This document shows, piece by piece, positions 998 through 42,339 of a DNA stretch of 64,000 nucleotides. Under the pieces are notes generated by a model. The model had not been told where the DNA came from. It saw nothing but the letters and a program-made list of their open reading frames with translations, and ran no database searches. Made by a program: the position numbers and the translations under genes. Positions within the stretch are counted from its first letter, which is position 1. Every line of letters begins with the position of its first letter. Origin of the DNA: Amphiura filiformis. Lineage: Eukaryota. The stretch is taken from assembly GCF_039555335.1 (NCBI RefSeq), contig NC_092633.1:21100334-21164333 (forward strand), read 5' to 3'.

Positions 998-1735
998 CTC
1001 ATATACTAAGTTTCAGTGGAACGGCTTTCGATAATTTCCTATTAACACACTAAAGGTTGGATTAAGTAAACACATATCATTACAGGCATCATTTACAGCG
1101 ACGGCAGTGTTCAGTACCTCCTTTAAACATAAATTGTATCTATTTATAGAAATAATGTTTAAAAAATAATTTATGTTGCTCTTTTTTTTCAATGAACCTG
1201 ATCTGCTTCATATTTAGTCTAACCAAACGTTACAACAGGTGATTCTATAATCATTAATGAACAGGTTTGCTATATGATGTGACAAATCAATACAGCAACA
1301 AGAAGAGAACAAGAATTGTTCATTTTGAATATCTGTTAGATAATCTACAGTACATCTTCTGTTTCAAGAATTTGCAAGTTGCAATAAATTCACCTGTCAA
1401 TCAAACCGTAAACTCGGTTATAATGCACTTTGTATTAACCTTCTGCACTACTAAAGCTACTATGAAATTGAAAACTTCTCATTAATGATATTTTTGGTTA
1501 TGCATTATGTAGAACAAATAACACTGTTGCTATTGAAGAGGTTCATTATAAATAACACTGTTTATGGCTGTAAAGTAACAGTAAGGCAAACTTAAAAATG
1601 TTGTTTTACTGGGTAGTACCAGGGATACTGAGTAGTACCAGGGAATGTTGCGTGGGTTTCAAAGAGGTTTTTCTTGCTTTTAAAAAGGATGACAGGGTAT
1701 TTAAAAATAAAATGTCAATATGATCTACACCCACA

Positions 1736-1800
1736 ATCATATAAATCCCCCGACATCAGCACCCTCCACCCCACACATACTACCACCGCCACAACAAAAT
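1736..1800. repeat. C/A-rich low-complexity patch (C-tracts, CACA, CCACC); macro-repeat landmark
   Basis: ccccgacatcagcaccctccaccccacacatactaccaccgccacaacaaa. Homologous patches occur at 12845-12962 and 25975-26050. Confidence 0.7.
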
Positions 1801-2309
1801 ACATAATATTCACAAACACCATTTTGTTTCATACTACTCGTCTTCTCGATCACTTATTTCTTCAGGCTGTGTACAAGTATGAGTAACTTACAACTTTAAT
1901 ACTAGCGTAGGCTTTCTATTAGCCTTTACACATACCAAACACAAAATGCAGACATGAGACCTTGTATAGAACAATGATATTGCTAAGAATTGTGTCCAGC
2001 ACTGAGAAAAACTCAATATCTAGCGTTTGTGGACACGATAAGAAGAAGAAGAAGAAGACCAACAAACACAAACACACATGATATTTTCTTATTCTTTTAA
2101 ATAGCCATTACATTTTTTTAAATGTAAAATAGGTTACTTTGGTTTACACGGAGAGAGCAATCAGAAATGTGGTCTATTAAGTAGGGAGGGATAAGTTGAC
2201 TAGATTAAGGAAAAGCACATACACCTGCTCATGAACACGCACAAACACACCCTACAATATTATAATCATGGATTGATAGAGTCAATGTGGGCTAAGTTTC
2301 TTTCTATTT

Positions 2310-2950
2310 CAGTGTCATTACGCAAGAACGTACAAAGTGATGTTAAAAGTAATACTTTCAGTTTAATAACGCAAAAGTTTACTAAGTGATGCTAAAAGTG
2401 ATGCTTTCAGTGTCAGTATGCAAAAGCTTACAAAGTGATGTTACATAAAAGTGATACTATTAGTGTGATTACGCAATAGGTTAAAAAGTGATGCTAAATG
2501 TGGTACTTTCAGGGTCATTATGCACAAGCTTACAAAGTGATGTTAAAAGTGGTATTTTCTTTGTAATTATGAAGGCTTACACACTGATACTAAAAGTGCT
2601 ATTTTCAGTGCCATTATGCAAATGAAAATTATTGATGCTTTCAGTGCAATTACTCAAAAAGGTTACAAAATGATGCTAAAAGTTATGCTTTCAGCGTCAT
2701 TATGCACAAGATTACAAAATGATGCTAAAAGTGGTGTTTTCTTTGTAATTGTGCATTATACTAATGCTAAAAGTGCTATTTTTAGTGTCATTATGCAAAA
2801 GCATATATATTGATGCTAAAAGTGCAACTTTCAGTTTAATTATGCAAAAGGCTTGCAAAGTGATGCTTAAAGTGATGCTTTCAGTGTCATTATGCAAAAG
2901 CTTACAAAGTGATGTTAAAAGTGATGCTTTCAGTGTCAATACATAAAGGC
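2310..2950 (+). repeat. 49-bp satellite array, about 13 units
   Basis: The unit is approximately gtgtcattatgcaaaagcttacaaagtgatgctaaaagtgatgctttca. The period of 49 was verified from gctttcagtg at 16112 and 16161 in the homologous array. Confidence 0.9.
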
Positions 2951-4190
2951 TTACACAAATTGATACCACAAGTCATCATGAGCTGACAGGTGTTAATGAA
3001 ATAGTAAGCTCGCAACCTCATACAAAGATCAAAAGGCAATAATACATGTATGATTGAATATTTTAGTGCAGGCAACCGTTCAAATTTCCTTGTCGTGTCT
3101 CGCCGAATATTGCCATTAGACTCAATATAAGGCGATATTCTTACAGGAGTTCGCATTTTTTTCTGACAATTCACCGTTTATTTTCCTAAATGTCTGTAAA
3201 AACACTTGACCATTTTGTGTGATTAATCACAAGCAGGACAAATACTACTTCATTTGGAAGTACTGTCTGCAATGATAAGGACTTTGGACGTCAATTTAAC
3301 GTTACGTTGCTATATTGATTTCTTATATATGGATGTGGTCAGTAGCCCGATATAATTTTTTTCTCTTTTATATTGAAAAACGGCTCAAGCTACATGCGTT
3401 ATATAAAAACCCTTTTAAATAATCGTGATGGTGTTAATATGATTTTAAGCAACATGTTTAGTGAAATGTAAGGAGACATTAATGTAAGGCATGTTAGGGT
3501 TACGATTGTTTCCCTAAATAACACTCTTCTTTATAGATAGGTTTATCTGTACTGTATACTTGACGATATTTTTCATCATATTATATTTCACCGCTTCTTT
3601 TCCACGTGTGTGGATTCATTACTCACGGGTTTGATTTTTAGCCAACACAAAAAAATAGCCATTGCGTTAGTTTAAAACCGGAGGGACTCAAAGTCGACCA
3701 AATTGTGCTTAACGAATGTTCCAAGCTATTTCAATATTTTGAATCATCACATAACTTTGTGTATACATCATGCTTTCAGGTTCCTACTGCTCCGACGTAC
3801 GTTTGTATTTTTACAGCAAAATCTCGGATTAAATTCGGTTAAAAATAACATATCTAAAATATGCACTACTTGTGTGCTTTGTTTCGTTATGTTATTTCTT
3901 ATATTCCTCCATACTCTTGGAGCTACTCAGCCCCAGGAATGCATCTGATCAATATTCTAAGCCTCATTGAGTGCCTTGGTAACCACTGAGAAGGCCTCCG
4001 GACATGCCTTAAGCATGCAAGCAAACTTACAAGTGGTCTTCAAAGTAGCCAATATACTCTGCATATTTTCACGTGTTTATTCAAGCAATTCAAACTTTCA
4101 AGCTCTTTCATGACGAACGTAAAGCATGATAAGGTTTCGTCATGGTATCTAGGCCTATAACGTCTGTATAAAATAAATTATATCAACATA

Positions 4191-6001
4191 CAGACTTGAC
4201 ATAAGTATGGGATAATTCTTCACGAAGTGCAAGGACTAATCTGAAAGGGGTCTGCATAAACCGCACGGGTTAAATATTTCATATTGGGGTGTGTCGGGAG
4301 ATGGTGGTGTCAAATAATTTTTTTATAGAAAATGTGCTTTCCATGACTACATTATGGTGCTCATAATGTAGTGAATTAGCCTAAAACGGCGGATTTAAGG
4401 AGACTGAATTTGAGTGGGAGAATTTTTAAATTTAACAAAATGGCTCTTAAAAGTAGTACGTACTCAGAAAGTTCAATCATAGAAGAAATTGGAACCCCTA
4501 AGGGTTCTTGGCCTTGTCTCGTATATGGAACCTCAAGGTTTCTTCCAAGGAACAGCGCCATCTACGTCTGCTACCAATAGGAGGCAACAGACGAGAAAGG
4601 TCAAAGCTGTTAGTAACTGGTCATATATGTGCGGAAGGAAGTACTTGTCACAATCCCTGTTGAGTGTTTCAAGCTACCCCTCTTTCTTATCCAAATTGAT
4701 TCCTTTATGTGTATTCTTTTCCTGCTGATTTTAATGTCTTATTTTGCTTCATCTCATTCAATTTGAGAAAGTGCTGTGTTACAGCACGGAACGTCATTGA
4801 GGTATGTCAATATCACCTATTTTTTATTATTTGTAAATAATTTCTCCAAAGAACCTTTGTTGAAGAACCCTATCACAAAGGTTCTTTAACATGTTTATTG
4901 AAGTCTAAAGGTTCTCCAATTTTGTCCAGTATATGGAACCCTACGGTTCATCAAAGAACCTTCATGATATCATGATATGGGTTCTTTGAATAACCCTATC
5001 AAAAAGGTTCTTTGTTGAACCTTTAAAGGTTCTTCTAGTTTGTCCCCATATATTGCACCCTATGATTCTTCAAAAAACCTTTGCAATAAGGTTCTTTGAA
5101 GTATGGTGACACGTACTCTAGAAATTGTCCTTAAAAGTACGGTCTTAAAGGTGAACGGCCAGAAAATTTTATATATTTGCTTGAAAATATAAAATCCGTG
5201 AAAATTTTATATATTTGCTTGAAAATATAGAATCCGTGGCTATTTAAAAATAGCGTTTTCCCTGCGTTTCAGTCGTATATGTAATACACTAGGAACCCTT
5301 TTCAAGTAAATTAGGGGTTCCTTGTGGAACTCAAAAGCCATAAAGAATCGTATTTTCACTGCGAGAACCCCATTGAGACTTCTAGCCTAGAGGTTCTTCA
5401 AGCGCACATGGTTCTTAAACGAATCCTATATCATTTTGAAGAACCCTTGAAGAACCCTTTTTCTAAGAGTGTTTGAATGGCCCCTAGGGGCAAATGTTAT
5501 AAACTTACTGTGCACAAAGAAACACGTGAGTTCATTGGACAACCAGAAATCCGCGCAGTTGTTTTTGTACCGTAAGTTTATAACATTTGACTTTTGACGC
5601 CGAGTACGTACCACGTTTAGGAAAAATATTTTAAGCTCCTCCCATTTAAAAGAAAATTGCGCATTGCAAGTACATTTCAGCTCTGATGAAAGCCAAAAAG
5701 GAAATATCACCTTAAACTCCAATGAATTTGATAATAACAATAACAATGTTGGATTAAGTCCGAAATTGTATCCCCCACAAAGATCAAATTCATTCCTTTA
5801 AATCCGCCATTTTAGGCAAATGCACTACATTTTGAGCACCATAATGTAATCTCATGGGGAAACACAATTTCTATAAAACAATTATTTTATACCATCTCCC
5901 GACACACCCCAATTAATATTAAGTCCGTGCGGTTTATGCTGACCCCTTCCAGATTAGTCTTGGCACTTCGTGAAGAAATAGTCCATACAATGTCAAGTCT
6001 G
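4191..6001. mobile_element. Foldback-type non-autonomous DNA transposon with ~245-bp terminal inverted repeats. Termini begin CAGACTTGAC (hAT-like CAG start, unproven).
   Basis: Left arm 4191-4435 is the reverse complement of right arm 5757-6001. The interior carries reiterated ggttct/agaacc sub-repeats and a 2x40-bp tandem repeat at 5161-5240. It is absent from the paralogous site in macro-repeat copy 2 (~17300, aataaattatgtagtttctgttcaag). Confidence 0.7.
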
Positions 6002-6394
6002 TAATGTACTTTCCGTTCAGTTCAAAACGAAACATTCGAGACATAATATTCCCCACACATGTCGCATTAAAAAAAAAATAAACACGTACTAATGAACTAG
6101 CCCCTACCAGCTAAACACTAAACTGTGTTTCATGTCAAGAGAAACAAATCATATTTCAAGAGTTGAATTGCTAAGGAGAAAAACGTGTTTTTGTGATTTT
6201 GCAATTCCCTTCGATTTGATTAATTTTGACTTGGGTTAAAGTTTCCATGGATAGAAACTAAAATAATAAGTTTGATGCAAATTTTCAGTCTTCAGTTTTA
6301 TTTTATTATTTCTTTTATTTCTTGGATTTTATGGATGTAAGCAGTTTTGCAATTCAACAAAATAACCACTTCTCTAGAAACCACCTTTGCAGTA

Positions 6395-7055
6395 CAATTT
6401 GATTCCAGCTTTGACGTCTACTTTATGCTTCTTGATCAATGCCTTTAAAATCAAAAGGGAAAATTGAAACTTGAAAATTGAAAAATTGAAAATTGAAAAC
6501 TTTAATTGACAAATTCCCGAAATTTCCCGAAAGGAAAAATAGCGATATCTCAGTAAGGGAAGGTGAAATGATAGTCAAACAAGCACCACAATGTGTATTG
6601 TGACCGACGTAATAACTCAATTTGATTCCAGCTTTGACGTCTACTTTATGCATCTTGATCAATGCCTTTAAAATCAAAAGAAAAAATTGAAAAATCTCAT
6701 TTTCTTTTTTAATTACGATTTTTTAATTAAATTCGTGAAAATGCCATTTTCCGTCATTTCAATAATCCAACTTTTGTTCATTAATTAATTAGTAATTCTT
6801 ACAATTATAATGGCCAAAAAAGTTCATTTTGATTTTAAACGTTAATGAACATTAAATGCTATCATAAAACTTCAAAACATTATAAGAAAAAATATTTTCT
6901 CTAGATTTTAGACAACTTTAATTGACATTTTCCAGAAATTCCCGAAATTTCCCGAAAGGGAAATAGCGATATCTCAGTAAAGGAAGGTGGTATAAAAGTC
7001 AAATAAGTACCAAAATATGTATTTTGACCGCCGTAATAACTCATTTTGACCAAAA
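6395..7055 (+). repeat. Local duplication of a ~223-bp unit with (GAAAATT)n and a tttcccgaaatttcccgaaagg motif; private to macro-repeat copy 1
   Basis: 6395-6462 repeats at 6618-6685 (caatttgattccagctttgacgtctactttatgc). 6502-6630 matches 6917-7050. The block 6130-7095 is missing from copy 2, where 17450 directly abuts the homolog of 7100. Confidence 0.6.
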
Positions 7056-8589
7056 GTGGACGTAAGCTGTTTTGCAAGTCAACTCTTCATGTATCCTATC
7101 TATGGCGGGCCATGGCGGTCATAAAAAAATTAGGTGCAAAAGGAGACGCGATCTCAAAGACGAGCATAACTTTTTCAGTCTTCTTCATATTTTGTCGACA
7201 TTTCTGAAACATAAATGGTTTAAGGGAATTCCTCCAATTTATCAATCATTTTAAGCAATTTATCAACCATTTTGGCCCTTGCCGAATATCTGAAATTGAT
7301 GTGACCCATCCTACAACCATGTCAAATTCTGACTTTTTGTATATTTAAACATAACTGTGAATTATATACAAGCAGTAAATAAGCTTTAAATGGCACCAAA
7401 TTTGCAGTTCTGTACCATAAAACCTATTTAATATTTATGAAGATGTGCTACAATTTGCTAAGAGTTATTTAAGTGTTAGTGTGATTTAAATTCTTAGATA
7501 TAAATAACTACATTTATTCTATTACGACCATGAAGAGGGATTAACAAAAGTCAAGATTCAATTGTTTGCTTTGTTCCATTAACTCTATATTATATTTTCT
7601 TTTATCTTAAATTGGATTTCATTACAAAACTACTAGGTCTACCAACATCACACTTGAATACTCGGATTAAACGATAAGTGAATTAATTAATAGTCCTTAA
7701 TTATTATTGGTTTAAGAAAAACAGAACAAACACATATACATCTTATAAGAAGACGCTGAGAAACATAAGAAATACATGATTCAATTAACTGATTTGAATA
7801 GCAAATATGACGAAAAATGTACATTTCAGATGTCATTCTGTTTTGACGCTCATTCATAATATAGTCATAGTAGATAACCCGGAAGTTGCACCTGTTACTT
7901 ATAAATTCGCGTAAAGTTTTGTACAATAAAGCCTTTGCCATATTGTGCACACATCAAAGAAGAGAATTCTCTGCCACCTGGCCATTGTTTTGACGTGGAC
8001 TTCATTCCAATGTTCAACGCTGGAGAAAAATAATATATCGCTGTAGGACTAAAGTAAACATGTTGTAGAATAAGGATTATTGTAAAACCTCTAGTAGGGT
8101 AAATATTCCGCAAAGGTAAAAGAAAAGGAAAAAGGGACAAGAAATGTTATAAATGGACACGTAGACGAGACATGCAAAATACATAAGGAAACAAACAGGA
8201 AGGAATTTCAGACGCGGATTAAGAAGTAAACTTTAGGAGACACACGGATATACTAGGCTTGGTTTATTGTGTAATGGTAAATGAATGGATAGTGACAATG
8301 CAGATAGGCAGGTGTTATAATACAGTTCCCTGTTGATGTGTACATGTATTACAGAGGTTCATCCCATTATTTCAAATGGGGTTATTCCAGATCTTTGAGA
8401 TCCTGAAACTGGATATTTATATTTATGACCAAAAAACGTAGTGGAATTAATATCATAATATGTCATGGTTTGATATTTTGACACTAGAAAGTCATACAAT
8501 GTTAAGATTTATGTCATCTTTCTAAAGCTTCACTAAAGAATGTTGTTGATTTGCGTTCACTGGAAATAACCTCAATGTAGTTCCATTTT

Positions 8590-9160
8590 GTTTTATTTAT
8601 TGACCAAATAGGTTTTGTCGTTGTTGGAATATGTAACTATTTTCTCATGCTAAGCGTAATTTAACACGTTCTTGTATAAATAATGTTTCCACAGGTTTTA
8701 TTTTTATTGTTGGTAACATTGGGTGACATTTCCGCCGCTGTATTCCAAATCGAGTTTTATTCAATGACGATTAAAAACAAAATGACCTATGATCATATTC
8801 TTTCATGTTCAAGAAATGAAAGACGGTTTGATGTTGTAATAGGTTACATCTAAGGCTTGACGCAATCACTTCTGAAGAAAATCCGCTACTCTGTTTCAAT
8901 TAGGTACTACATTTATACATATTAAGGTGTTCGAAACTTCTTACACAACACTTATGTCACACTGCCCCCATCGTTATCGTCTCATCAAGTACTAAGTGAG
9001 TGCATGGGTGTATTGAGTTCAATGTTTTCGGCGGTCGAGATGATCAGTATTCAGATTCAAAAAGAGTTTAGCTGATGTCGATAATTACGTACATGTACTT
9101 ATACTAACCTTTGCTTTCTTCTGCCAAGTACCAGTTAGTGTGTATGAGATCCCTGTAATA
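8590..9160 (+). repeat. About 570-bp dispersed repeat (copy 1 of 3)
   Basis: Homologous to 24110-24660 and 30110-30640, for example ctcatgctaagcgtaatttaacacgttcttgtataaataatgtttcc and gtactaagtgagtgcatgggtgtattgagtt. Confidence 0.6.
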
Positions 9161-9187
9161 GGATCTTTATTATGTTAGGGATGAAAT

Positions 9188-9310
9188 CAAAACTCGTCCT
9201 GTGGTCGACGGCCGGTTCCGTCCGCTTTGATCCGGTTTCTGTTGTTCTAAACAATGGAGCGCGGTTCAACCGCTGATAACTGCCGGTCAACCGGCCGTCG
9301 AGTTTTGATT
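9188..9310. repeat. GC-rich hairpin insertion (short palindromic element) in an otherwise AT-rich repeat
   Basis: atcaaaactcgtcctgtggtcgacggccggttc at 9190-9222 is the reverse complement of caaccggccgtcgagttttgat at 9285-9306. It is absent from the paralogs at 24660 and 30640. Confidence 0.5.
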
Positions 9311-9859
9311 GTATCGCTAACAGATTGAAATTAGATTTGCAGCATTAAAATAATTTCATCTATTTTATCAACAATATTTTCTCTGAATAATTTCCTTCAA
9401 ACATTCATTTGGCACTTACGTTTTATAGATTTTAAGCAGCCTCAGTTTTGGTTAAACCAAAGAGAGGTTGATAAGCTATTATATCATATTTACCAAGAAA
9501 ACAATAAACTATTCATTCAATTCGTAAAGAGCAAGATGTAGTAAACTATCGGTATAAACGACTTTGTTTTTAGTAGTACTCAAAAGTCAGACTTCACGTG
9601 ATAAAAGTCATTGCACTAACCTCGTCTGCCACCTGGTAAAAATAGAAACTTATTGAATATATACATCATTTGATTTCCAGGGGGCATGGGATTTGTTGTG
9701 AAAAAATAACTTCGACTAATAGTGAGCCGAAACAAAATCGCTCCACTGATGAGAAAAAATATTTCGCCGCCGTAATCCCACCACTGAGACCTTTTTGGAA
9801 TGAGGAACCAATTTAGGTCATTCATATCGGCTATTACAAACTTCTTCAAAAGCGTGGAA

Positions 9860-11020
9860 ATATCAGAAAAGAGGTGGTGTTCTCAATTACACGTATTCAG
9901 GCCAGTAAATATGGTGAATCCAGAGATTTACTAACTAGTCATATCTCGGTTTAATACAGCAAAGAGTAAGACGCCCAGACCATCTCATTTTGCTAATTTC
10001 AATATTGCTGGTGTGTTTTAAATATTACTAATGCATGTCACCGCTATTACAGGCTTTAATATAATAGGTATGATATCGTCTGCGATCGATATAACAGTGT
10101 AATAACATTACATATTTTTTAGAATAACTAAAAACAACCTCTTTTTAGCTCCTGAAGTCTTGTAACATTTCCGCTGTCACAATGTTATAAAAATTAATTT
10201 GGCCAGAATGAAAATGCACTTAAAAGCAAAGTAATAAAAAACCTATTGAAACTTGAAAAATAGACTCTTGACGGAAATGCAAACTGTATGAAATTTTAAA
10301 CGTAATTGCCTTGGGGTGATATCAATTTCAATATCTATCTAGACGTGAAGCTATGTCCAGAGCAAGGTCTCGTGTAGATAACTGAATATCGTGTGGGCAG
10401 CACATAAAGCTTCAATTGCTAAGAGACGCATCGACTTAACATCGATTTCGTTTATGGTGTTACAAAGTGGCGTGGTTTGGTTGTGACTTGGCAATTGGAG
10501 CAATAACAAGCATATGCTATTGGCCTCTGGCTATGTCATCATGTCCTAGTTACAGATAACCAATTATACAGGCCTCAGGATGTCAACAAACTACTCAATA
10601 GCAAAATTAACACTAGCGAAACATTGAACACCTTTTACATGGTTCATCAATACTAAATATATGAGCAGAAAAGAATTACATGAACTTATTTTAATGTTGT
10701 AAAATCAATTCTACTTGTTGTTACGCTTTATGAAAGACTTCGTGTTTATATTCACTCACGTAAGCGACCAAAGGTTCTTGGTACGTCTCTGGGATACCAC
10801 TGCACCATATGAGTATAGATATGATAACTTACAGCACTAATGAAAATACTTGTGACATACTCAAAATAACATTTTACATCGAGCTTTTAGATGATGGTAT
10901 CCTCATTATGGAAATTGGTATCGACTCCTCTTCCCACAAGATGTTGATTTAATATGCAGGTTGCTTGGTTCTATGGCTAATAAAGCAGTTGAGGACCCAC
11001 TCAACTTATAATTTGTCCCT
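9860..11020 (+). repeat. About 1.2-kb interspersed repeat family, class unknown (copy in macro-repeat 1)
   Basis: Homologous to 24890-25620, 35120-36545 and 41051-41760. Shared strings include ggtgttctcaatt, cttgaaaaatagactcttgacg and ggctatgtcatcatgtcctagttacagataac. Confidence 0.6.
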
Positions 11021-11390
11021 CCCAATTTATAATAGCCTTTCAGGATAGCCGTCTGATATTTCTCGTTTACTTGTTTGAGCCCTTATCGCGAAGTTGTAGC
11101 TCATCTCGGGGCTTCCTGGTTGATAACATAACATGGCCGGTTTAAGAAATATATAGAGGATTTTCTGGTTATCTGTGGATGTTTTTCATATATTATGGCT
11201 TTTACCGATCTTTTAAAAGAAACAATGCAGATTTACTTATTCTTTAAAGATACAGTTATATATGGCGCAGAGTCTATAAATAAACATCTACACTCCTCTT
11301 TATGAGCTAGCTTCGTGATATTGATGTGAGGCATTGATCACTCTATTCTATGGTTAATTTAAGGAACCTTTACTTTCTTTACATAGATCG

Positions 11391-11711
11391 GTAGAAGTAG
11401 TGATGTAACAGGTTTAATTACCATAGCAATGGGTTTACACTATTCTTTAATGTCCTGCACTATATGCAGGATGTACTAATCATCTGTGTATGTTTGCAAT
11501 GATAGATTGACTACGATACCGCTCTTTTCAAAGACATTAATCTTACAGGTGTTGGAGATCAGCATGATCTAATTCTAAATAATTACGATCCAGGTCTTTA
11601 TCCATGTACGGCATGAATGGCGTAACGCGACTTGCGCAGGCCAATACAATAAAAAAAAATAGTGTAAATCCATTGCTATGGTAATTAATCCTGTTACATC
11701 ACTACTTCTGC
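11391..11711. mobile_element. MITE, ~320 bp, with ~52-bp terminal inverted repeats
   Basis: gtagaagtagtgatgtaacaggtttaattaccatagcaatgggtttacactat at 11391-11443 is the reverse complement of 11659-11711. The internal region is shared with 59290-59400. Confidence 0.7.
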
Positions 11712-12844: not shown

Positions 12845-12962
12845 ACGAACCTCTCTACAACCACCACCACATCACCACCTTCCAACACACCCCACACACA
12901 CCACACACACCCCCATCCCCACCCCCCCCACACACACACCCACACCCACCACATATTTCATA
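12845..12962. repeat. C/A-rich low-complexity patch (expanded version)
   Basis: ccaccaccacatcaccaccttccaacacaccccacacacaccacacacacccccatccccaccccccccacacacacacccacacccacc. The His/Pro/Thr-rich ORFs reported in the track here are translation artefacts of this patch. Confidence 0.7.
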
Positions 12963-14655: not shown

Positions 14656-14658
14656 TTA

Positions 14659-15237: not shown

Positions 15238-15240
15238 TTA

Positions 15241-15790: not shown

Positions 15791-15895
15791 ATAGTCATGT
15801 GCTGACAGGTGCCAATGAAACTGTAAGTCCGCTTTTTCACGCCTCGCCGAATATTGCCAAGTTAGACTACTAAGGCGGTATTCTTCCATTTTCAA

Positions 15896-19713: not shown

Positions 19714-21009
19714 AGATTAGAGCAAAATATTCCAGAAAGTTACATTGTAAATTATACTTGGTCTTCAAGATATCAAGGGGAAGAAAACTATCATCTTCAT
19801 TTAAAATATCAGAAATAAATTTAATACCTTTCTCATGCCAGACTTTTTTGTAAACAGTGTTTTGGGCGATAACAATAGATGAATTATTCCATAATATTTG
19901 ATGTCTAAAATGACTTGAAGGAGAATCATAAGTAATTGTACACCAAGCGTTGAGAATTTCACCAATAAACACATTCTTAATAAGCTTAATACATTTCTCC
20001 TCTGGTTTAGTGTTAAAAAAACAAAAAAGATTACCACCAATCTGTTTCATATAAAACATATAAAAACATTTCCATTTACCATTGTTGTTCACATCCAAGA
20101 GACGTTTAACCCAAGCCACTTTAAGCCCATTAATAACTGAGGGAATGTGAACCATCTTGAGGCCCCCTTTCTCATAGTCACCAATGATGGACTTTCTGCT
20201 GAGCTTATCTGGTTTTCCTGACCAAATAAATTTAAATATTATCGAGTCAACCTCCTTCAAAAAATTATCAGGTGGTTTAGGTAAAACAGAAAACAGAAAA
20301 ATTAATTGAGAAAGACCCAAGGATTTAACAATTGTAATTTTACCAATTGGACTTAAATCTCTCATCGACCAAATTCGCAAGATTTCCTTGAGTTTTTTGG
20401 AACGAAATTTAATTCAAAAATATTGCTCAGATCAGAACTAAAAACTACACCCAAAAGACGAACAGGATTGGCAGTAAAATGTAAATCATCATTGTTTAAA
20501 TCAGGAGGATTATCCTTAAACAAACCTAAAGGGAGTAACTCAGATTTATCCAAGTTAATTTTCAAGCCAGAATAAATTTGGAAAGTCTCAAGAATGTGAA
20601 CAACTCTGTGAAGGAGCCAACATCCTTTAAGTAAATAGTGGTATCATCCGCATAAGCACTAATAATAATTTCAGTATTCTCAACCATGATACCTTTAACA
20701 CTATTATCATTTCTGATGGCCAAATTCAAAATCTCACTACTAATTATATAAAGCAGCGGACTAAGTGGACAACCTTGACGAAGTCCACAAAACAATTAAA
20801 AAAATCAGAAGCATGTCCATTGTTCATAACACACGAGGTAATATCTGTATAGAAAACTTTCACCCAATTAATCAAATCATCACCAAAATTAAACAATTTT
20901 AATGCCCTAAACACAAAGGACCATTCAAGTTTGTCGAATGCCTTTTCAAAATCAATTAAAAACATAATACCAACAAAATTATTTTCTGTGCAACCTGATC
21001 ATTGGGTTT

Positions 21010-22714
21010 GAAGTACCACATTGCCAAAATAAATGTGGGATATTTTCTAACTCCTGATTACAAAAAGTACAAAGATTTGAATCAACATAACCATATTTAA
21101 ATAGATTTTCATTTATACCTATAATTCTATGCAGAATTTTGAATTGAAAATACCTAAGTTTGGTTGATAGGGAGGAAGACAAGGGAATCCTGTAAATATC
21201 GTTCCAATTTAAATTCATATCATCAAAAAAGACAGCCCATTTGGCCTCGGCTTTGGGCGTCTTAAACAACTTGTCAACGCAAATTTTGTGAACCAATTTG
21301 CAGACCTTCTTAGAGGAACAGATAAGAGCAAGCATATCATCATGATCATTCTGAACAGTTCCCAAGTCTTCCCCCCTCTCGACACTTCTGATCCATACAT
21401 TTGGAATGGCATAGATTAGAGCAAAATATTCCAGAAAGTTACATTGTAAATTATACTTGGTCTTCAAGATATCAAGGGGAAGAAAACTATCATCTTCATT
21501 TAAAATATCAGAAATAAATTTAATACCTTTCTCATGCCAGACTTTTTTGTAAACAGTGTTTTGGGCGATAACAATAGATGAATTATTCCATAATATTTGA
21601 TGTCTAAAATGACTTGAAGGAGAATCATAAGTAATTGTACACCAAGCGTTGAGAATTTCACCAATAAACACATTCTTAATATTAAAGCTTAATACATTTC
21701 TCCTCTGGTTTAGGGTTACATTCCCAAAAAAGATTACCACCAATCTGTTTCATATAAAACATATAAAAACATTTCCATTTACCATTGTTGTTCACATCCA
21801 AGAGACGTTTAACCCAAGCCACTTTAAGCCCATTAATAACTGAGGGAATGTGAACCATCTTGAGGCCCCCTTTCTCATAGTCACCAATGATGGACTTTCT
21901 GCTGAGCTTATCTGGTTTTCCTGACCAAATAAATTTAAATATTATCGAGTCAACCTCCTTCAAAAAATTATCAGGTGGTTTAGGTAAAACAGAAAACAGA
22001 AAAATTAATTGAGAAAGACCCAAGGATTTAACAATTGTAATTTTACCAATTGGACTTAAATCTCTCATCGACCAAATTCGCAAGATTTCCTTGAGTTTTT
22101 TGGAACGAAATTTAATTCAAAAATATTGCTCAGATCAGAACTAAAAACTACACCCAAAAGACGAACAGGATTGGCAGTAAAATGTAAATCATCATTGTTT
22201 AAATCAGGAGGATTATCCTTAAACAAACCTAAAGGGAGTAACTCAGATTTATCCAAGTTAATTTTCAAGCCAGAATAAATTTGGAAAGTCTCAAGAATGT
22301 GAACAACTCTGTGAAGGGAGCCAACATCCTTTAAGTAAATAGTGGTATCATCCGCATAAGCACTAATAATAATTTCAGTATTCTCAACCATGATACCTTT
22401 AACACTATTATCATTTCTGATGGCCAAATTCAAAATCTCACTACTAATTATATAAAGCAGCGGACTAAGTGGACAACCTTGACGAAGTCCACAAAACAAT
22501 TTTAAAAAATCAGAAGCATGTCCATTGTTCATAACACACGAGGTAATATCTGTATAGAAAACTTTCACCCAATTAATCAAATCATCACCAAAATTAAACA
22601 ATTTTAATGCCCTAAACACAAAGGACCATTCAAGTTTGTCGAATGCCTTTTCAAAATCAATTAAAAACATAATACCAACAAAATTATTTTCTGTGCAACC
22701 TGACCATTGGGTTT
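21010..22714 (-). repeat. Tandem duplicate of 19309-21009 (LINE 5' part plus TSD plus 15 bp of upstream flank)
   Basis: The junction at 20983-21011 reads ttctgtgcaacctgatcattgggttt|gaagtaccac. That is the TSD plus flank joined to internal LINE sequence (= 19309), with a 2-bp 'ga' microhomology. The two units are near-identical. Confidence 0.7.
22065..22670 (-). pseudogene. L1-like ORF2 reverse-transcriptase fragment (copy A)
   Basis: 201-aa ORF with FIDFEKAFD, RQGCPLSPLLY and YADDTTIY. The equivalent region in copy B (20362-20965) is broken into three frames by homopolymer indels. Confidence 0.8.
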
Positions 22715-22759
22715 GACGTGGACTTCATTCCAAATGCTCCAAGCTGGAGTAAAATAATA

Positions 22760-23220
22760 TATCGCCGTGGATAAGACAATGCAGACATAAACATGGTTTA
22801 TGTTCAAGATCAACAGGTTAACATCAACATAAATAATGCTACAAACTAAAAGCTAGATAAGTTGAAAGACTTCAAATATTATGGAGCAATGGATGGATAG
22901 TACAGATCATGATGTCAAACATATAAGACAGCAGCTTGGCGAGCATGAAACAACTTAAGCAAGATCTGGAAGTCTGCTTGACCTACCAAAGAAAACCTGC
23001 GTGTCTTCAGTACAACAGTGGCGTCTGTGTTAATGGATGTTAAGCCAGGACCACGAATCCAAAACTATCCAAGATCTGGATGCCTCTTACTATGAATGCC
23101 TAGAAATAACAATAACATGATAACGTACACGGGAAACAGCACATAAGTAGCAAAGAGCTGCACGGAGACCTTCCAAACCTCTCTGAAGATCCGAGCAAGA
23201 ACTACACTAGAACTGGCTAG
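22760..23220 (+). pseudogene. Decayed 3' end of a CR1/L2-type LINE ORF2 (older element into which the L1 and a MITE inserted)
   Basis: Homologous to 29513-29900, with stops and frameshifts. The LINE-tail homology continues at 23886-24100, after the MITE 23222-23885. Confidence 0.5.
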
Positions 23221-23221
23221 T

Positions 23222-23885
23222 CCGTACTTTAAATAAGTTGTATTTTGGGTTTTGGTTTAGGTAAAAACGTTTTAATAACATTAAAATGTCGGGTTATTAT
23301 AAAGGTCATGAAATCGTTTTAACACGTTTTGTATGAAAACACACTACAACAATATTTTTAAAATGTTTTTGAAATGTCATTGTAAACTATTTTTGCAAAC
23401 AATTTTAGCCAAATATTTTGTCAACACTTGAATAACATTATGTTAAAATATGTGCACCCAGCAAACACAGAAATGTTCTTAAAATGTTTTTTACAAAACG
23501 TTTTAATAACATTTAAATGTCGGGTTAAAGGTCGTGAAAACATTTTAAAAACGTTATTGTAAATATGTTGGGCAAACATTTTTTGCAAAATATTTTTCAA
23601 CCCCAAAATAACATTCTGTTTAGAATGATTTGTACCAAGTTTTCAAAAATGTTTTTGGAATGTTATTAAAACGTTTTTATACCCTTTATATAACCCGACA
23701 TTTAAATGTTTTCTGTAAAACATTTTTGTTTGCTGTGCAGTAAATTACCAACAAATGTTATTTAATGTTATGAAAATGTTTTATACCATTAATGTAGCCT
23801 TTATATAACCCGACATTTAAACGTTTTCTGACAACCTTTTGCGAATGATGTCGAAAACGTTTTGTGTTTGCTGGGTTCCAGCCGG
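23222..23885. mobile_element. MITE with internal palindromes, lacking its 5' TIR, inserted in a LINE tail
   Basis: Homologous to 62560-63360. The 3' TIR aaaacgttttgtgtttgctggg ends at 23885. Internal inverted repeats of the type ataacccgacattt / aaatgtcgggttat. Confidence 0.6.
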
Positions 23886-24109
23886 TACTGGTCACGACAC
23901 TGGGTACATGGCTAGAACTACACGTTTTGCTGTACACTGCTTCAGGAGTAAGAGCGAAGATGTCGACAAATGTAACTGATCAACTGGACACCCAGGCATG
24001 GAGGCAGAAATCCTGGTAGACCATTGTGGACCGCCTAATAACTATGTATATGAGTTCAGCATTCAATCATTCGTTATACGGCCAATTTCTGCTGACAATA
24101 ATTTGTTAA

Positions 24110-24660
24110 GTTACACCATTTTCTCATGCTAGGCGTAAATTAATTTAACACGTTCTTGTATAAATAATGTTTCAACGAATTTTTTTTATTGTCGGTAACA
24201 TTGGGTGACATTTCCGCCGCTGTATTACAGATCAAGTTTCATTTAATGACGACTAAAAACCAAATAACCTGTGATCCTATTCTTTCATGTTCAAGTAGTA
24301 AAAGGCGCTTTGATATTTTGATAGGTTACACCTCAGGCTTGAATTAAGCACTTTTGAAGAAAAACCGCTACTCTGTTTCAATTAGGTACTATATTTATAC
24401 ATATTGGGGTGTTCAAAAACTTCTTACATAACACTTATGTCACATTGACCTCATCGTTATCGTCTCATCAAGTACCAAGTGAGTGTATGGGTGTATTGAG
24501 TTTAAATGTTTTCGACGGACAAGATGGTCAATATTCAGATACATAAAGAGAGAGTTTAGCTTATATGTCAATAATTACGTACATGTTATACTTTACTACA
24601 CCTTGCTTTTTTGCCAATACCATTTAGTGTGTATGAGATGATAAGAACACTTTTATGTAA
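24110..24660 (+). repeat. About 570-bp dispersed repeat (copy 2 of 3)
   Basis: See 8590-9160. Confidence 0.6.
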
Positions 24661-24889
24661 GAGATTGGAATTAGATTAAATTTCATCTATTTTATCAACA
24701 ATATTTTCTTTGAATAATTTCCTTCAAACATTCATTTGGTACTTAAATCTTAAGTAGCCTCAATTTTGGTTAAACCAAAGACAGTAGCTCGTATATGAGA
24801 TGAAATATTTACCGTAAATATTTCAGGAAAACAATAAACTATTAAATAAAATTCGATTCGAATTATTTGTCACGGTGTACTGTGTGGAG

Positions 24890-25620
24890 ACTCTTCAGAA
24901 GAGTCGGACTAACAAGAAAAGATATGGTGTTCTCAATTGCTCGTATTCAGGCCAGTTAATAATATGGTGAATCCAGGGATTTACTAATTCGCCATATCTC
25001 GGTTTAATACAGATCATCTAACTTGTTAAATTCCAAATCGGTGGTGTGTTTTTAATGTTACTGATGCATATCACCGCTAATACCGGCCTTAATATTGTAG
25101 TTAAGAAAAAAAGAGTCCCTACATGACAGCGATCGATATCAATGCAAAATTGCATATTTTAAGAATAAAAAAACAAACTTAAATATATAAGCAACCTCTT
25201 TCCCGCTCCTTAGGTCTTCTAACATTTCCCGCAGTAAAATGTCACAATGCTTATAACATGAATTTTGCCAGAATGAAAATGCACCTAAAATAAACACAAA
25301 ATAGACTCTTGACGATAAAAGCAAACTGTGTGAAATTTGAAACATAATTACTCTGGGCTAATATCAATTTCAATCTATCTGGACATGCAGCTACGTCCAT
25401 GTCAATGTCTCGTGTAGATGACTGAATATCGTGTGGGCAGTACATAAGTTTCATTTGCTTAGTGCTGCATCGATCTAACGTTTCGTTTATGGTGTTACAA
25501 ACTGGCGTGGTTTAGTTGTGTGACTCGGCATTTGTCGCAATAAACCATGATAACAAGCATGTGCTATTGGCTTCTGGCTATGTCATCATGTCCTAGTTAC
25601 AAATAACCCATTATACAGGT
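24890..25620 (+). repeat. About 1.2-kb repeat family copy, 3' truncated at the copy2/copy3 junction
   Basis: See 9860-11020. Confidence 0.6.
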
Positions 25621-25974
25621 CTCAGTTTCAATAAATTCACCTGTTAATCAAGCCGCAAACTCGGTTATAATGCACTTTGTATTAATCTTTGGCACTACTT
25701 AAGCTACTATGATATTGAAAACTTAATTTCTTTTATGATATCTGTAGTTCATTTCGAAAGTATACATCGTGTGAAACAAACGACACTTTTGACGGTTATA
25801 AAGTAGCAATAAACTTACAAAGTTGTTTTATTATACTGACAGATAATATTGCGTATGTATTTCAAAGAGGATTTTACTTTTAAAATATATGACAGGGTAT
25901 AATGGCAGCGTATGTGTCGCTAAATTGCTACAGAGTACTGTTACGTACAAAAAAATGGACAGATACACGAACCT

Positions 25975-26050
25975 ATCTACAACCACAAGCATATAAACAT
26001 CCCACCTATCACAACTCCCCCCCCACACACACACCCCCACACACCATCAC
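25975..26050. repeat. C/A-rich low-complexity patch (copy 3)
   Basis: cccacctatcacaactccccccccacacacacacccccacacaccatcactaccacaaa. Confidence 0.7.
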
Positions 26051-26235
26051 TACCACAAATTTCAACAAATTCAACAAATGAAATAGAACATATATTTTTA
26101 CAATGTTCTCAATTTCAGTAAAATATCTTCAAGTTTAGAATAAATCTAGCAATCTAGTAAATTTTCTAAATGGCCTGCCAAAAAAATCGCTTCTCCCCTT
26201 GGTCCGCACAGCCCCTAATAAAAATACTGTTTTCC

Positions 26236-26310
26236 GTGTATTTATTATGCAAAAGCTTATAAAGTGATGCCACTTTCAGTGTAATTATGCCAATGTTTAA
26301 AGTGAACATG
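26236..26310 (+). repeat. Relic of the 49-bp satellite, about 1.5 units (copy 3)
   Basis: gtatttattatgcaaaagcttataaagtgatgccactttcagtgtaattatgccaatg, flanked by the usual array-flank homologs (26310-26560 vs 3225-3430). Confidence 0.6.
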
Positions 26311-28055
26311 TGCTGACAGGTGTTAGTAAAAATCACAACCCTTTCACCAAAAGCTGACAGTAACGTATCTAAAAAAACATAAACATTACAAACAATGCTT
26401 CATTTGGTAGCACTGTCTGCAATGACAAGGACTTTTGACATCAATTTAACGTTACGTTGCCTTAATGATTTCTCATCCGCGTATTATGGTTCTCTTTCAC
26501 TTTGACCTTGGGGAAAAAAGCTTAAACTACATGCGCTATATGAAAACCCTTTAATAATCATGATAGTGGTAATATGATTTTAAATAGCATCTTTAGTGAA
26601 ATTAAGGTGAGATGGAGTTGGTTGCCCAGCACTTGCATGTGGCGCCCAGCACTTGCCTGTTACAGTACAATGCAGTTAAGGTAGTGCCCCGTCAGGCAAC
26701 AGTCAACCACACGGTCAGAAAAAAGACGGGAACCGCCACAAACCAGATCACAGCTGTTTGCAAGAAATTTTGCACCGCGTATGTGGAAGTTCACTTTTCA
26801 AACGGCTACTTTACTTAAACAAAATTGCGACAAGAACTGTCACCCTTGCGAGGGAAAATACAGCTTCGTTAGCCATGTCACTGGGTCGTCAAGAAACAAA
26901 AATATTGAACTAACACCACAGCTGTGGTACATCACAATATAAAAGCAATGGAAAGAAAAATGCAAATGTTCGTCATTTTTCAGCACATATAATATTGGCA
27001 AAATTTTGCATATAGCCACCATTTCTTCAGCTAACTCGTCTATATCCAAGGGGTGCCCGTCATCTAGTTATTATCTATATCTATGTTATAGTACGGAACT
27101 GAAGATTGTGAAAGTGCCAGGTTTTGGCTATAAATTTACATTCCGAATCAAATTGATTATATATTTGTAATGTTTTTATTTAAAATGACTCTTGTGCCGA
27201 GAATAATCATTTTGATACGCAACGTCAGGCTTTTTGAATCTCAATCTCGCTTTAAAGGAAGTTATGTAAGGCTATCAGTTTCTGTTCACTTCAAAACTTA
27301 TTCGCTGTTTAAAGGGGACATTCAGACATTCCACAGATTACGTTTTTATTCCACTTTTAATACGCACTTATGTAAACCTAATATGAATTACTAACCCCTA
27401 TAATGAATAAGCTAGACACTGCGCTTTCATGTCAAGAAAGGCAATCTAAAATTGTATTGGCAGTCATAAGAAATTACGTGTAAATCAATTGGAATGCGAC
27501 GTGATCTTTCAGTTTTATTCATATTTTGTCGACAACTTCAGAACATTTTACAAATATATCTTTTTATATTTTGGGTCCTAGCTGGATCATGTGACCCATC
27601 CTACAACCCGTAACATGTAACGATTGGACTTTTTGTTTGATATTCAAACATAACTGCAAATCACAAATATTATATATATAAGCTTTAAAATATCACCAAA
27701 TATATGTAATTTTTTGCAGATATGCTACCGTGACAATTTGCCAAAAGTTCTTTATGTGTTCTAATGTAAGAGCAATTTGAGGAATAAACCAATATTTTTC
27801 TACAGTTACTCATTCCTGAACAGGGATTAACAAAAGTCAAGATTTAATTGTGCGCTTAGTATTACACAAGTATGACTCTAGAAATTGAAATGAAACTATT
27901 TGATCTTTTCAATGTATCATCTTTATATTATATTGGCCTTCATCACACTTTAAAGTGGGAACTCGGAGTTCTAGGTAAGAAATAAGTGAGTTATAACCGA
28001 ATCCTTAATTTGGAAATATAGAATGCAAGTAACTATCTCAAATAGTACAAATATG

Positions 28056-28640
28056 TGACCGTCCACGGCGAATGAGCCGTAAATTCCTCCCCGGTCAATT
28101 TTGTTTTATTTCGTGTTTAAAAATAAACATCATAAACTTAAAAATGGTATATCATTTGACTTCAAACGATATCCAGAAGCGGGGTTATGGTTTGATAAAC
28201 TTTGCTCCTTCAACAAAATTATAGCTTTTACGTTTTTACAAGTGTCTCTTTTTCCACATTGCTGGCAATAAATATCAAACAGTCATAATTGGCGGTCATT
28301 TCAAATCATCCCCAAGTCAACGAGGTTTAAGAAGGTTCTCTCATTGTTAATTGTTGGTTATGCATACCTATACAAAATACAATGCCTGGTAACCCACCAC
28401 TTGAAAAGGATTTAGCAAAAGCAAACAAAGACCAGAGCTATTAAAAGTTCTATAGCCATCTAAGGGAGAAGCTTATTATCCACTTCAATAATAGGATTAT
28501 TGATTGGTGTTGTGACTATCGAAATAAGACAGATGTCGCGCCAGCATAAGTGACCGATGAATACGACCTTCGTACACATTTTACACCATAACTCAGAATA
28601 CAATTTAGGGAATTTACGGCTCGTTTGTGCTGCCGGGTCA
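28056..28640. mobile_element. TIR element (~585 bp) private to macro-repeat copy 3, with an apparent 5-bp TSD (ATATG)
   Basis: Ends tgaccgtccacggcgaatgagccgtaaattcc and ggaatttacggctcgtttgtgctgccgggtca form an imperfect ~32-bp TIR. ATATG at 28051-55 and 28642-46. Paralogous empty sites ~7790 and ~18710 read ...caaatatgacgaaaaatg... Confidence 0.45.
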
Positions 28641-29512
28641 CATATGAAGAAAGCAAGAACATTTCAGTTGATGTCATTGTGTTTTGACGCTCATTCATAA
28701 AGTCATAGTTGATAAGGCGGAAGTTGCACCTGTTCGTTGCAAATTCCGCGTAGAATTGTGTACAATAAACCCTTTGTTATTATACACATATCAAAGAAGT
28801 GAATTCTTTACAACCTGACCATTGCTTTTGACGAGGACTTCATTCGAAATGCTCCAGGCTGGAGAAAAATAATATATCGCTGTATTAATGCAGACATGTT
28901 GTAGAATAAGGAATATGGTAAAATCTCTAGTACGATCATTTTCCACAAAGGTATAAGAAAAGGACAGGGGGCAAGAAAGGTGGTCAAAGGACACGTAGAC
29001 GATACATGAAAAATACAAAAAGATACAAGCAGGAAAGTATTTCTGACACGGATTCAGAAATATAGACGAATATATCTGGCTATGTTTATTATGTAATAGT
29101 CAATGAAATGGTAGTGGCAATGCAGAACGGTGAATATTGTAATGGCGTTTCCCTTTAATCTGTATTAAAGAGGGTTATCCCATTATTTAAAAAGTGGTAA
29201 TTTCCAGATATTTTGAAAACCTGACACTGTACAGGATATTTGATAGTCATAAATATCATAATAACTATTAATTTCGCTCGTAGTGGAATGTGTCATGTAC
29301 TGGAAAAACATCATTCGCCGTTTACCATGTTAACAACCATGTTATCAATCCCTCCCTAAACATGCTAAATAATGTGTATCCAAACATTGATGATTTGCGT
29401 TAAATAGAAATATCCTTAAATGATTTCCATATTATATTTATTTATTGACCAATTTGGTTTTGCCGTAGGATAGGATATGTCATTTTGGGTGTAATAACCT
29501 TAATCTGTTTTA

Positions 29513-30010
29513 TTGGTCATGTTGGTGAAAGACTTCAAATATCTTGGAGTATGGATGGCTAGCACAGCGCATGATGTCATAACACATAAGGTGGTAGCTT
29601 GGAGAGCATGTTACAACCTATGCAAGATCTGGAAGGCTGCTCAACCATCAAAAGAAAAACTGCGGGTCTCCAGTGCAACAATTAAATCTGTGTTAGAATA
29701 TGGGTGTGAAGCCTGGCCCATGACTCATAAATTATCTGAAGAGCTGGATGGCTCATACACCCGAAAGCTTAGGACGGATAGTGTACAATAACCACTGGAA
29801 ACAGCACATAAGTAACAAAGAATTACGGAGACCTTCCAAGACTCTCAGAAAAAGATCAGAGAAAGAAGGACACACTTCGTTGGATACTGCTTCAGGAGTA
29901 AAGATGAAAATCTCGTCAATTGGAGGCACATGGAGCCAGAAACCCTGGGGACTGCGATGCAGGACAGGATAATATGGAGAACTATCGTGGTTCGGGAAAA
30001 CCACTCGAAA
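29513..30010 (+). pseudogene. Decayed CR1/L2-type LINE ORF2 C-terminal region
   Basis: The 92-aa ORF MVMLVKDFKYLGVWMAS...KIWKAAQPSKEKLRVSSATIKSVLEYGCEAWPMT follows the conserved post-RT pattern FKYLG...W.S..L....K.R.....V.S.LLYG.E.W. It is followed by a ...NW..ME.E....DR..WR..V-type tail. Confidence 0.55.
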
Positions 30011-30109
30011 TAAGCAAGTAAGCAAGTTATTGCTAAGTGACTCTTCAAAATTGAAGTCAAAATAACAAATTGACTAGAGATTAGTTCTCAATCAATTTGT
30101 TATACAGAT

Positions 30110-30640
30110 ATTTTCTGCTGGTGATAATGGCATGTTGTCGTAAATTATTTTAGCACATTATTGTAAAAAAAATATGTTTCCACGATTGTTTTATTGATGT
30201 TACAATAGATAACATTTCCTCCCCTGTATTCCAGATCGAGTTTCTTTTAATAATGACTAGAAACCAGTGACCTCTTGAGCTTATTCTTCCGAGTTTAAGT
30301 AATGGAAGAGGCTTTGATGTTTTAATAGCTTACACCTTTGGCTTGAATCAATCACTTTTGAAAACAAACGCTACTCTGTTTCAATTTGGTACTATATTTA
30401 TACATATCAAGGTGTTAAAACCCTTCTTAAATAACACTTATGTCACATTGACCTTATCGTTATAGTCTCATCAAGTACTAAGTGAGTGCATGGGTGTATT
30501 GAGTTTAAATGTTTTCGGCGGACAAGATGATCAGTATTCAGAGTTTAGTTTATATGTCGATAATTACGTACATGTTATACTTAACAAAACCTTGCTTTCT
30601 TCTGTAAAATACCAGTTATCATGATTTCCACACCTTAGGG
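30110..30640 (+). repeat. About 570-bp dispersed repeat (copy 3 of 3)
   Basis: See 8590-9160. Confidence 0.6.
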
Positions 30641-35074: not shown

Positions 35075-35119
35075 AATGAAGATAATTGCATCTTTTGCAC
35101 CGAATTAACCGAATTCTAT

Positions 35120-42190: not shown

Positions 42191-42339
42191 TAACCGTCAC
42201 TTTGATCTTTTAACTTTACAAAATAACACAAAATTTTCCTCAAAAGTTTGTAAAAATAAAACAATTTTTACATCTTCCCTTTCCCAAAATCGATCAGGCT
42301 AAAACAAAACGACCAATAACAAAAGTGCGTATCAGAATC

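Follow-up and report, generated by a model that had tools for sequence, protein, structure and literature searches.

A three-copy tandem array of a repeat-rich, non-coding segment in the Amphiura filiformis genome, probably an ancient local triplication

Introduction

In a stretch of 64,000 nucleotides from the brittle star Amphiura filiformis (NCBI RefSeq assembly GCF_039555335.1, contig NC_092633.1, positions 21,100,334 to 21,164,333 of the forward strand; hereafter the window, with position 1 at its first letter), the same ordered set of repeat-like blocks recurs three times in a row. This raises the question of how such an array came into being, and whether it belongs with macrosatellites, with transposable elements (TEs), or with ordinary segmental duplications. 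A first-pass annotation, made by inspection of the sequence, had described positions 1067-30640 as a macro-repeat of three tandem copies whose large differences are discrete TE insertions, and had placed it among macro-satellite or segmental arrays prone to mis-assembly. Our analysis supports the three copies and extends the last of them. In the best explanation, to which we assign a probability of roughly 0.8, a ~9-10-kb segment, non-coding and already rich in repeats, was triplicated locally and in tandem in the distant past, and its terminal block is present in a fourth, partial copy.

Three colinear copies of one unit

Self-BLAST and colinear chaining revealed that positions 1036-36080 consist of three same-strand, head-to-tail copies of one ~10-kb unit (c1, c2 and c3; the coordinates of all features are collected in Table 1). 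Long direct matches link the regions 1-12 kb, 12-26 kb and 26-36 kb, and chaining recovered 8-15 ordered same-strand blocks per copy pair, covering 3.6-4.5 kb. With the satellite masked, the chain scores were 3285 for c1-c2 (9 blocks), 2250 for c1-c3 (10 blocks) and 2044 for c2-c3 (13 blocks), and the reversed-sequence controls scored 0. When the 400-bp blocks of one partner were shuffled, a permutation that keeps the matches and destroys their order, the scores were 1406±232, 992±206 and 889±111 for the same pairs, and the observed chain was higher than 25 of 25 permutations in every pair (z about 6-10). Chains of c1, c2 and c3 against the remainder of the window reached only 40-764, and inverted chains 0-256. 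By these chains and controls, the three parallel, broken diagonals that had been predicted are real. The proposed starts of c1 (1067) and c2 (12299) are right within 10-30 nt and the proposed c2/c3 boundary (25620/25621) is exact, but c3 does not end near 30640 as had been supposed: its homology runs to ~36.1 kb, and the partial fourth terminal block lies beyond.

The part of c3 past 30.6 kb is recognized by matches of c2 24625-24855 to 34037-34295, of c2 24891-25619 to 35132-35845 and of c1 9836-10724 to 35126-36000. Copy 3 thus resumes at 34037-36080, after ~3.4 kb of added DNA. There are ~2.2 kb of extra DNA at 30619-32787, holding a 597-nt palindrome (30872-31468), and a nested 1.23-kb tandem duplication, after which come the homologues of c1 9326-9676 and of the terminal block, R (35126-36080). 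No further copy of any shared unit block was found in the window at 42-64 kb, and a metagenome contig (ENA ERZ25070167, 67 kb, echinoderm-like) shares no block of the unit. That contig carries a 72-75% related long interspersed nuclear element (LINE), together with an SRCR-domain gene, and probably comes from another echinoderm-like animal.

Within the copies, the C/A-rich patch, the right flank of the satellite, the 7100-7977 block, the ~570-bp block and R keep a common order, and the landmarks listed at first pass (C/A-rich patch, 49-bp satellite, ~1.1-kb flank, 7100 block, ~570-bp repeat and ~1.2-kb repeat) were found in that sequence. In each copy the satellite array is flanked by two conserved arms (1935-2306 and 2956-4065 in c1 coordinates). 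One further landmark, an old LINE tail, holds for two of the copies. A decayed C-terminus of ORF2 (FKYLG...LEYGCEAW...) can be read in c2 (22861-23207) and c3 (29520-30010); it has been deleted from c1, and ~590 nt common to c1 and c3 are missing from c2. Its matches to DUF6451 are below threshold in both copies (E 0.06-0.09), and tblastn, blastx and phmmer comparisons with the LINEs of the window and with 120 jockey-like reverse transcriptase (RT) proteins found no similarity. The assignment of this tail to a LINE, made by inspection of motifs, is therefore tentative. Elsewhere in c3, ~630 nt (26614-27242) have no counterpart, and c1 and c2 share ~590 nt at that place.

Junctions and the mode of duplication

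The starts of c1 and c2 align at 68% over 1284 columns (E 2e-156). The flanks of the array are single-copy, with the left (131-1035) and the right (41877-43500) unmatched in the tested comparisons, including that of 41877-43500 with 11197-12400. A candidate hidden homology between 131-1035 and 11723-12264, which would have lengthened the unit, was rejected (score 22, shuffles 19.7±2.9). The upstream sequence 1-1035 is not repeated as part of the unit, and its sole shared piece is a palindromic repeat resembling a miniature inverted-repeat transposable element (MITE), found at 1-130, 11393-11709 (inside the spacer between c1 and c2) and 59187-59401. Two of these palindromic repeats sit a few hundred bases 5' of the c1 and c2 starts, with unrelated DNA in between.

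The c1/c2 and c2/c3 boundaries lie at different positions of the unit. Copy 2 carries ~340 nt of upstream sequence that are absent from c3, and c1 retains ~620 nt of the terminal block that are absent from c2: the R block of c1 runs to 11196, equivalent to 41876, and that of c2 stops at c1-equivalent ~10577. Because the breakpoints at the two boundaries differ, the array would have arisen by at least two separate events and not by repeated copying of a unit with fixed ends. At c2/c3 the junction is exact and shows microhomology of two nucleotides, which argues for non-homologous or replication-based tandem duplication.

We infer the following history, in which the mechanism is read from the junction sequence alone. 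Besides the 49-bp satellite, the ancestral segment would have contained the 3' fragment of an old LINE and further unclassified blocks, and it would have undergone at least two separate duplications, close in time, by non-homologous end joining (NHEJ) or by the template switching of fork stalling and template switching or microhomology-mediated break-induced replication (FoSTeS/MMBIR). In the simplest order, the first event would have duplicated a segment a-U-R-r, giving c1 and the ancestor of c2 and c3, with the 1.07-kb spacer added or retained at the junction. The second would have duplicated U-R inside the second copy and created the 25620/25621 junction, and a ~1-kb duplication of R would be the third. 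Over a long time the copies would then have decayed neutrally and independently: besides substitutions, deletions and the growth and shrinkage of the satellite, they would have acquired at least six TE insertions, independent of one another, and further tandem duplications of smaller size, with ectopic gene conversion on occasion.

Divergence of the copies and gene conversion

Identity between the copies is 73-87%. Over the 2492 columns present in all three, the Kimura two-parameter (K2P) distances are 0.217 (c1-c2), 0.269 (c1-c3) and 0.259 (c2-c3), which is near star-like, and the sites at which two copies agree against the third number 286 for c1=c2, 209 for c2=c3 and 192 for c1=c3, with the closest pair varying by block. 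The four copies of R differ by K2P of 0.19-0.24, with splits of 5/5/4. The star-like divergence and the splits among the R copies indicate that little time separated the origins of the copies, and that the order of duplication is not recoverable from site patterns or from R. With the neutral rate of A. filiformis, 1.885e-9 per site per year (PMC11310086), and under the assumption of neutrality, K2P of 0.22-0.27 would correspond to a triplication roughly 55-70 Myr ago. The divergence of the shared blocks, which had been proposed as a means to date the duplications, has thus given an age estimate but no order, and the relative chronology of duplications expected at first pass fails on the star-like divergence, the mosaicism of the blocks and a conversion tract that breaks the clock.

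This tract is a near-identical stretch of c1 and c2, edged on both sides by ~12% divergence. Copy 3 holds only ~35 nt of it (~82%), the remainder being deleted. RNA structure was not in excess in the tract (z -0.9 and +0.16), Rfam gave no credible match for it, and we read it as a probable recent ectopic gene conversion between c1 and c2, across 13 kb. At the same rate, the conversion tract and a 1.7-kb tandem duplication in c2 would be roughly 2-4 Myr old (the duplication about 2 Myr). When further near-identical tracts were sought by BLAST with strict penalties, this known one was missed, and the negative outcome for c1-c3 and c2-c3 is unreliable.

Some observations weigh against the triplication in the form proposed above. 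Firstly, the three-way K2P of single blocks is as low as ~0.12-0.14 (and ~0.01 in the conversion tract) and as high as 0.36-0.49, a spread beyond that of one neutral clock. By 100-nt windows, c1-c2 identity goes from about 50% up to 100%, and in certain blocks all three copies keep an identity of 81-87%. For this heterogeneity, gene conversion, difficulty in aligning low-complexity sequence, or local constraint must be invoked. Secondly, a history in which the c2/c3 duplication is the youngest predicts that c2 and c3 are the closest pair, yet c1 and c2 are slightly closer overall; we attribute this tentatively to conversion. Thirdly, the c1/c2 boundary is not clean, and the 1.07 kb of unmatched DNA between these copies obscures the first breakpoint.

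The clear conversion tract between c1 and c2, the somewhat greater closeness of this pair, the block mosaicism and the differing sizes of the 49-bp arrays would also fit a macrosatellite-type array that was resized by unequal crossing-over (non-allelic homologous recombination, NAHR), with ongoing concerted evolution and copy-number variation. Human macrosatellites such as D4Z4, DXZ4 and RS447 likewise have a kilobase unit repeated head-to-tail with a shorter satellite inside each unit, but they consist of many near-identical units, evolve in concert and are polymorphic in copy number. Here there are merely three copies plus a fragment, most of the unit is not homogenised, and the private insertions found in every copy have not spread to the sister copies. 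Furthermore, NAHR would replicate one junction type, whereas the junctions of this array are non-uniform and the microhomology at c2/c3 is only 2 nt. A macrosatellite origin is thus unlikely, and the earlier framing of the locus as a macro-satellite, a hotspot of structural variation and a usually mis-assembled region does not agree with copies 73-87% identical, as against a heterozygosity of 3.2%. Local tandem triplication followed by independent decay accounts better for these features.

Differences between the copies

The copies differ in their satellites. The arrays of c2 amount to ~2.1 kb, compared with 0.65 kb in c1, and include 152/153-bp higher-order units identified by Tandem Repeats Finder (TRF). 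Wedged between them, 15763-15888 repeats the first part of the right flank in truncated form at ~80%, and part of the c2 excess appears to be an old nested duplication of the satellite together with this flank start. The ~3.5x expansion ascribed to c2 is therefore real as a difference in size and partly due to nested duplication, and the collapse of the satellite ascribed to c3 is confirmed by the short remnant left there. The literature search for a brittle-star satellite found nothing relevant, and a metagenome scan with the commonest satellite 19-mer returned four contigs with chance matches of 20-28 nt only.

Most of the large differences listed at first pass were borne out as discrete TE insertions, by target-site duplications, by an empty site in a sister copy, or by both. 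The foldback element with terminal inverted repeats (TIRs) in c1, the PIF-like MITE, the TTAA MITE and the insertion in the old LINE tail of c2, and the TIR element of c3 are each private to one copy (termini, target-site duplications and empty sites in Table 1). The palindromic TTAA MITE has a relative at 53755-53933. The block 6127-7113, also given as private to c1, is indeed missing from the colinear sites of c2 and c3, but an inverted relative of 6176-7093 lies at 31945-32604 in the extra DNA of c3, which marks the block as an apparent dispersed repeat. The LINE of c2, described as an L1 with its tandem duplication, is likewise private, with empty sites at c1 7967-7977 and c3 28804-28814, but the duplication is not part of its insertion. 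At its end the 1.7-kb repeat takes in the LINE 5' junction and, beyond it, 28 nt (20983-21010 = 22689-22716) made up of the target-site duplication and 17 nt of flanking host sequence, which indicates that the duplication came after the LINE insertion. Its junction at 21010/21011 leads back into LINE-internal sequence and reads GGGTTTGA joined to AGTACCAC, with microhomology of 1-2 nt, and the event appears to be very recent and separate from retrotransposition. With the duplicates 98.9% identical, a small assembly artefact is conceivable at this place only.

Altogether at least seven tandem duplications of varied ages were recognized within the 64 kb, namely the two macro-duplications, the ~1-kb duplication of R (R3/R4), the 1.23-kb duplication in c3, the satellite and flank duplication in c2, the ~2-kb duplication 54463/56509 outside the array and the 1.7-kb duplication 19310/21011. 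This catalogue hints at frequent local duplication in this genome.

The unit is made of repeat-like blocks with an internal satellite between conserved arms, and the star-like divergence of the four R copies is such as a transposition burst would leave. Both would be compatible with a large composite TE (Helitron/Helentron-like, CACTA-like or with long terminal repeats (LTRs), and carrying the satellite) that built the array by three tandem insertions or by multimerisation. However, self-BLAST found no direct or inverted match between the unit ends that would represent LTRs or TIRs, no target-site duplication surrounds the units, the ends of the copies fall at different positions of the unit, and c2 meets c3 at truncated positions inside it. 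In addition, the other 22 kb of the window and the ERZ25070167 contig hold no further copy of a block, and three independent, adjacent insertions in the same orientation are improbable. We therefore regard a composite TE as a very unlikely source of the array. TEs with internal tandem repeats include the Helitron/Helentron-associated satellites of bivalves and MITE-derived satellites. The array resembles them in the 49-bp satellite between conserved arms and in the renewed duplication of satellite and arm start in c2, but differs in having no termini, hairpin or target-site signature and in lying within a much larger colinear unit.

Table 1. Coordinates of the array, its shared blocks, private insertions and other features in the window.
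Feature	Position	Strand	Description
Copy 1 (c1)	1036-11200	+	~10.2 kb; c1 1036/1057 pairs with c2 12265/12290; end 11196 pairs with 41876
Copy 2 (c2)	12265-25620	+	~13.4 kb; swollen by four TE insertions, satellite expansion and 1.7-kb duplication
Copy 3 (c3)	25621-36080	+	~10.5 kb; start is c1-equivalent position 1378
Partial fourth copy, terminal ~1.2-kb block (R) only	36214-36562 and 41056-41876	+	split by young LINE 36563-41055
Spacer c1/c2	11201-12264	.	~1.07 kb; without counterpart at other junctions
c2/c3 junction	25619-25625	+	unit ~10577 fused to unit ~1378; 2-nt (AG) microhomology common to both parents
49-bp satellite, c1	2307-2955	+	TRF, 13.6 units; also delimited as 2307-2976
49-bp satellite, c2	13416-14658 (~25 units), 15237-15652, 16015-16239 (the latter two also delimited as 15237-15762 and 15900-16239)	+	TRF
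49-bp satellite remnant, c3	26219-26305		~87 nt
Satellite right flank	2956-4065; 16240-17306		~1.1 kb, c1 and c2 homologues
7100-7977 block	7100-7977		shared, in order
~570-bp block	8636-9182; 24115-24665; 30131-30618		homologues in c1, c2 and c3
~1.2-kb terminal block (R)	9836-11196; 24891-25619; 35126-36080		homologues in c1, c2 and c3
Near-identical tract	c1 2869-3151; c2 16153-16434	+	4 differences in 283 nt (98.6%), 80-88% background
c1 insertion (foldback)	4191-6001	.	1.8 kb, ~230-nt TIRs (CAGACTTGACAT...), TA flanks, Tc1/mariner-like; empty site c2 17306-17316
c1 block	6127-7113	.	no TIRs; 27 nt at c2 colinear site
c2 MITE within satellite	14659-15237	.	50-nt TIRs (GGGAGGACAGTTTTTATGG...), TTA duplication, PIF/Harbinger-like; no empty site
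c2 palindromic MITE	17727-18270	.	TTAA on both sides (piggyBac-like target); empty site c1 7386-7389
c2 5'-truncated LINE	18884-22688	-	RVT_1 and zf-RVT; poly-T tail at left end; 11-nt duplication TTCTGTGCAAC
c2 insertion in old LINE tail	23208-23913	.	10-nt duplication AGAACTACAC; empty site c3 29864-29873; 85% relative at 62759-63357
c3 insertion (TIR element)	~28056-28640	.	short TIRs (TGACC.../...GGTCA); 5-8-nt direct repeat (ATATG core); empty site c1 7802-7815
1.7-kb tandem duplication	19310-21010 / 21011-22716	.	98.9% identical, 11 mismatches
Nested 1.23-kb tandem duplication, c3	32788-34033 / 34018-35232		~84%; doubles homologue of c1 9326-9950
~2-kb tandem duplication outside array	54463-55903 and 56509-57878; 56108-56186 and 57924-58001		81.8%; 91%
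Apparently young, near-intact LINE	36563-41055	-	4.5 kb, jockey/CR1-like; overlapping endonuclease (573 aa) and RT (462 aa) open reading frames, (AAT)n 3' tail, GTAT flanks

Coding content and possible function

The GC content of the window is 34.8%, and that of the A. filiformis genome is 36.67% (PMC11310086). In the shared blocks of c1, the longest open reading frame (ORF) has 99 aa, and a scan of all ORFs of at least 50 aa from the shared blocks, concatenated, gave no Pfam match at E<=1. No Rfam family was detected in the window at gathering thresholds, and the only long ORFs of the window belong to two LINEs. The very uneven identity (46% to 100% in 100-nt windows), with blocks at 81-87% in all copies, might be taken as a sign of a tandemly duplicated unit under selection, be it a cis-regulatory module, a non-coding RNA gene or exons of a gene family, with 2869-3151, 3735-4065 and 8636-9182 as the functional patches. 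Besides the absence of coding and RNA-family matches, the best-conserved of these tracts has no excess of RNA structure and is largely deleted in c3, and TE insertions and deletions occur throughout the copies. Selection for a function is therefore a highly improbable explanation, no function is indicated, and we infer that the locus behaves as neutrally evolving DNA.

The published assembly of A. filiformis was made from R9.4 Nanopore reads with diploid flye and purge_dups, from an animal with a heterozygosity of 3.22%, and measures 1.57 Gb against a k-mer estimate of 1.33 Gb (PMC11310086). Although this heterozygosity, the excess over the k-mer estimate and a 1.7-kb duplicate (19310-22716) whose 98.9% identity falls in the range of haplotype divergence would suit a single copy falsely expanded by uncollapsed haplotypes or mis-joined long reads, such an artefact is hardly credible for the array, as the copies differ by 13-27%, four- to eight-fold above the heterozygosity, and carry kilobase private insertions with their own target-site duplications, the window is without N gaps, and even the 1.7-kb duplicate shows clean microhomology at its junction and is of a length that single reads can cover.

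Relation to known duplications

Local tandem segmental duplications by NHEJ or FoSTeS/MMBIR have been described for human and Drosophila copy-number variants. The array is similar to these in its head-to-tail copies of the same orientation, in the microhomology of 1-2 nt at c2/c3 and at the 1.7-kb duplicate, in breakpoints that differ per event, and in nested duplications at several scales. It differs in being very old (K2P 0.22-0.27), a decayed relic whose first junction is obscured by 1.07 kb. Within the same genome, tandemly duplicated clusters have been reported for the phb, luciferase-like and Gsx genes (PMC11310086), which share the local tandem mode of duplication with the array; those clusters are protein-coding, whereas in the unit no coding or RNA-gene content was detected. 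The locus adds one more example to a familiar kind, as a clean but ordinary old local duplication, and does not belong to the macrosatellite class. It reveals no new kind of element and no function.

The copies are useful as mutual empty-site controls, by which at least six TE insertions are proven base by base. The target-site preferences obtained in this way (TA, TTA, TTAA and LINE-type duplications of 10-11 nt) can help to curate the TE families of an echinoderm genome whose annotation is poor. Both kilobase duplication with microhomology junctions and ectopic gene conversion of short tracts appear to operate in this genome, and the variation among blocks cautions that duplicates should not be dated from one block.

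A wider reading, which we put forward only as doubtful, is that microhomology-mediated tandem duplication has recurred at this locus, with events of many sizes and ages inside 64 kb. Unusual structural instability has been reported for the A. filiformis genome. If the density of recurrent duplication seen here is typical of the genome, or marks its fragile regions, replication-based local duplication would rank among the main causes of that instability and would still be at work, and internally dated relics such as this one could be used to measure the rate of duplication.

Other repeats in the window

The LINE that splits the fourth copy of R appears to be young and is near-intact. In its RT ORF (37046-38434, minus strand), the matched part is 97-98% identical to an "uncharacterized protein [Amphiura filiformis]", and the other named relatives are jockey-like RTs of echinoderms and cnidarians. 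On account of these matches, a plant origin of the DNA, to which a zf-RVT domain had pointed, was rejected. At the end of the window there is an RT remnant (63839-63952, minus strand) that is 50% identical over 38 aa to a LINE RT. Small tandem repeats were found just 5' of c1 (857-992, a CT-rich 65-bp unit repeated 2.1 times), within a 123-aa ORF (61995-62149, 78-bp unit, twice) and within the relative of the c2 insertion 23208-23913 (62834-63163, 184-bp unit, 1.8 times). Two microsatellites, (ATT)39 at 53021-53137 and (GAA)21 at 63731-63793, were also identified.

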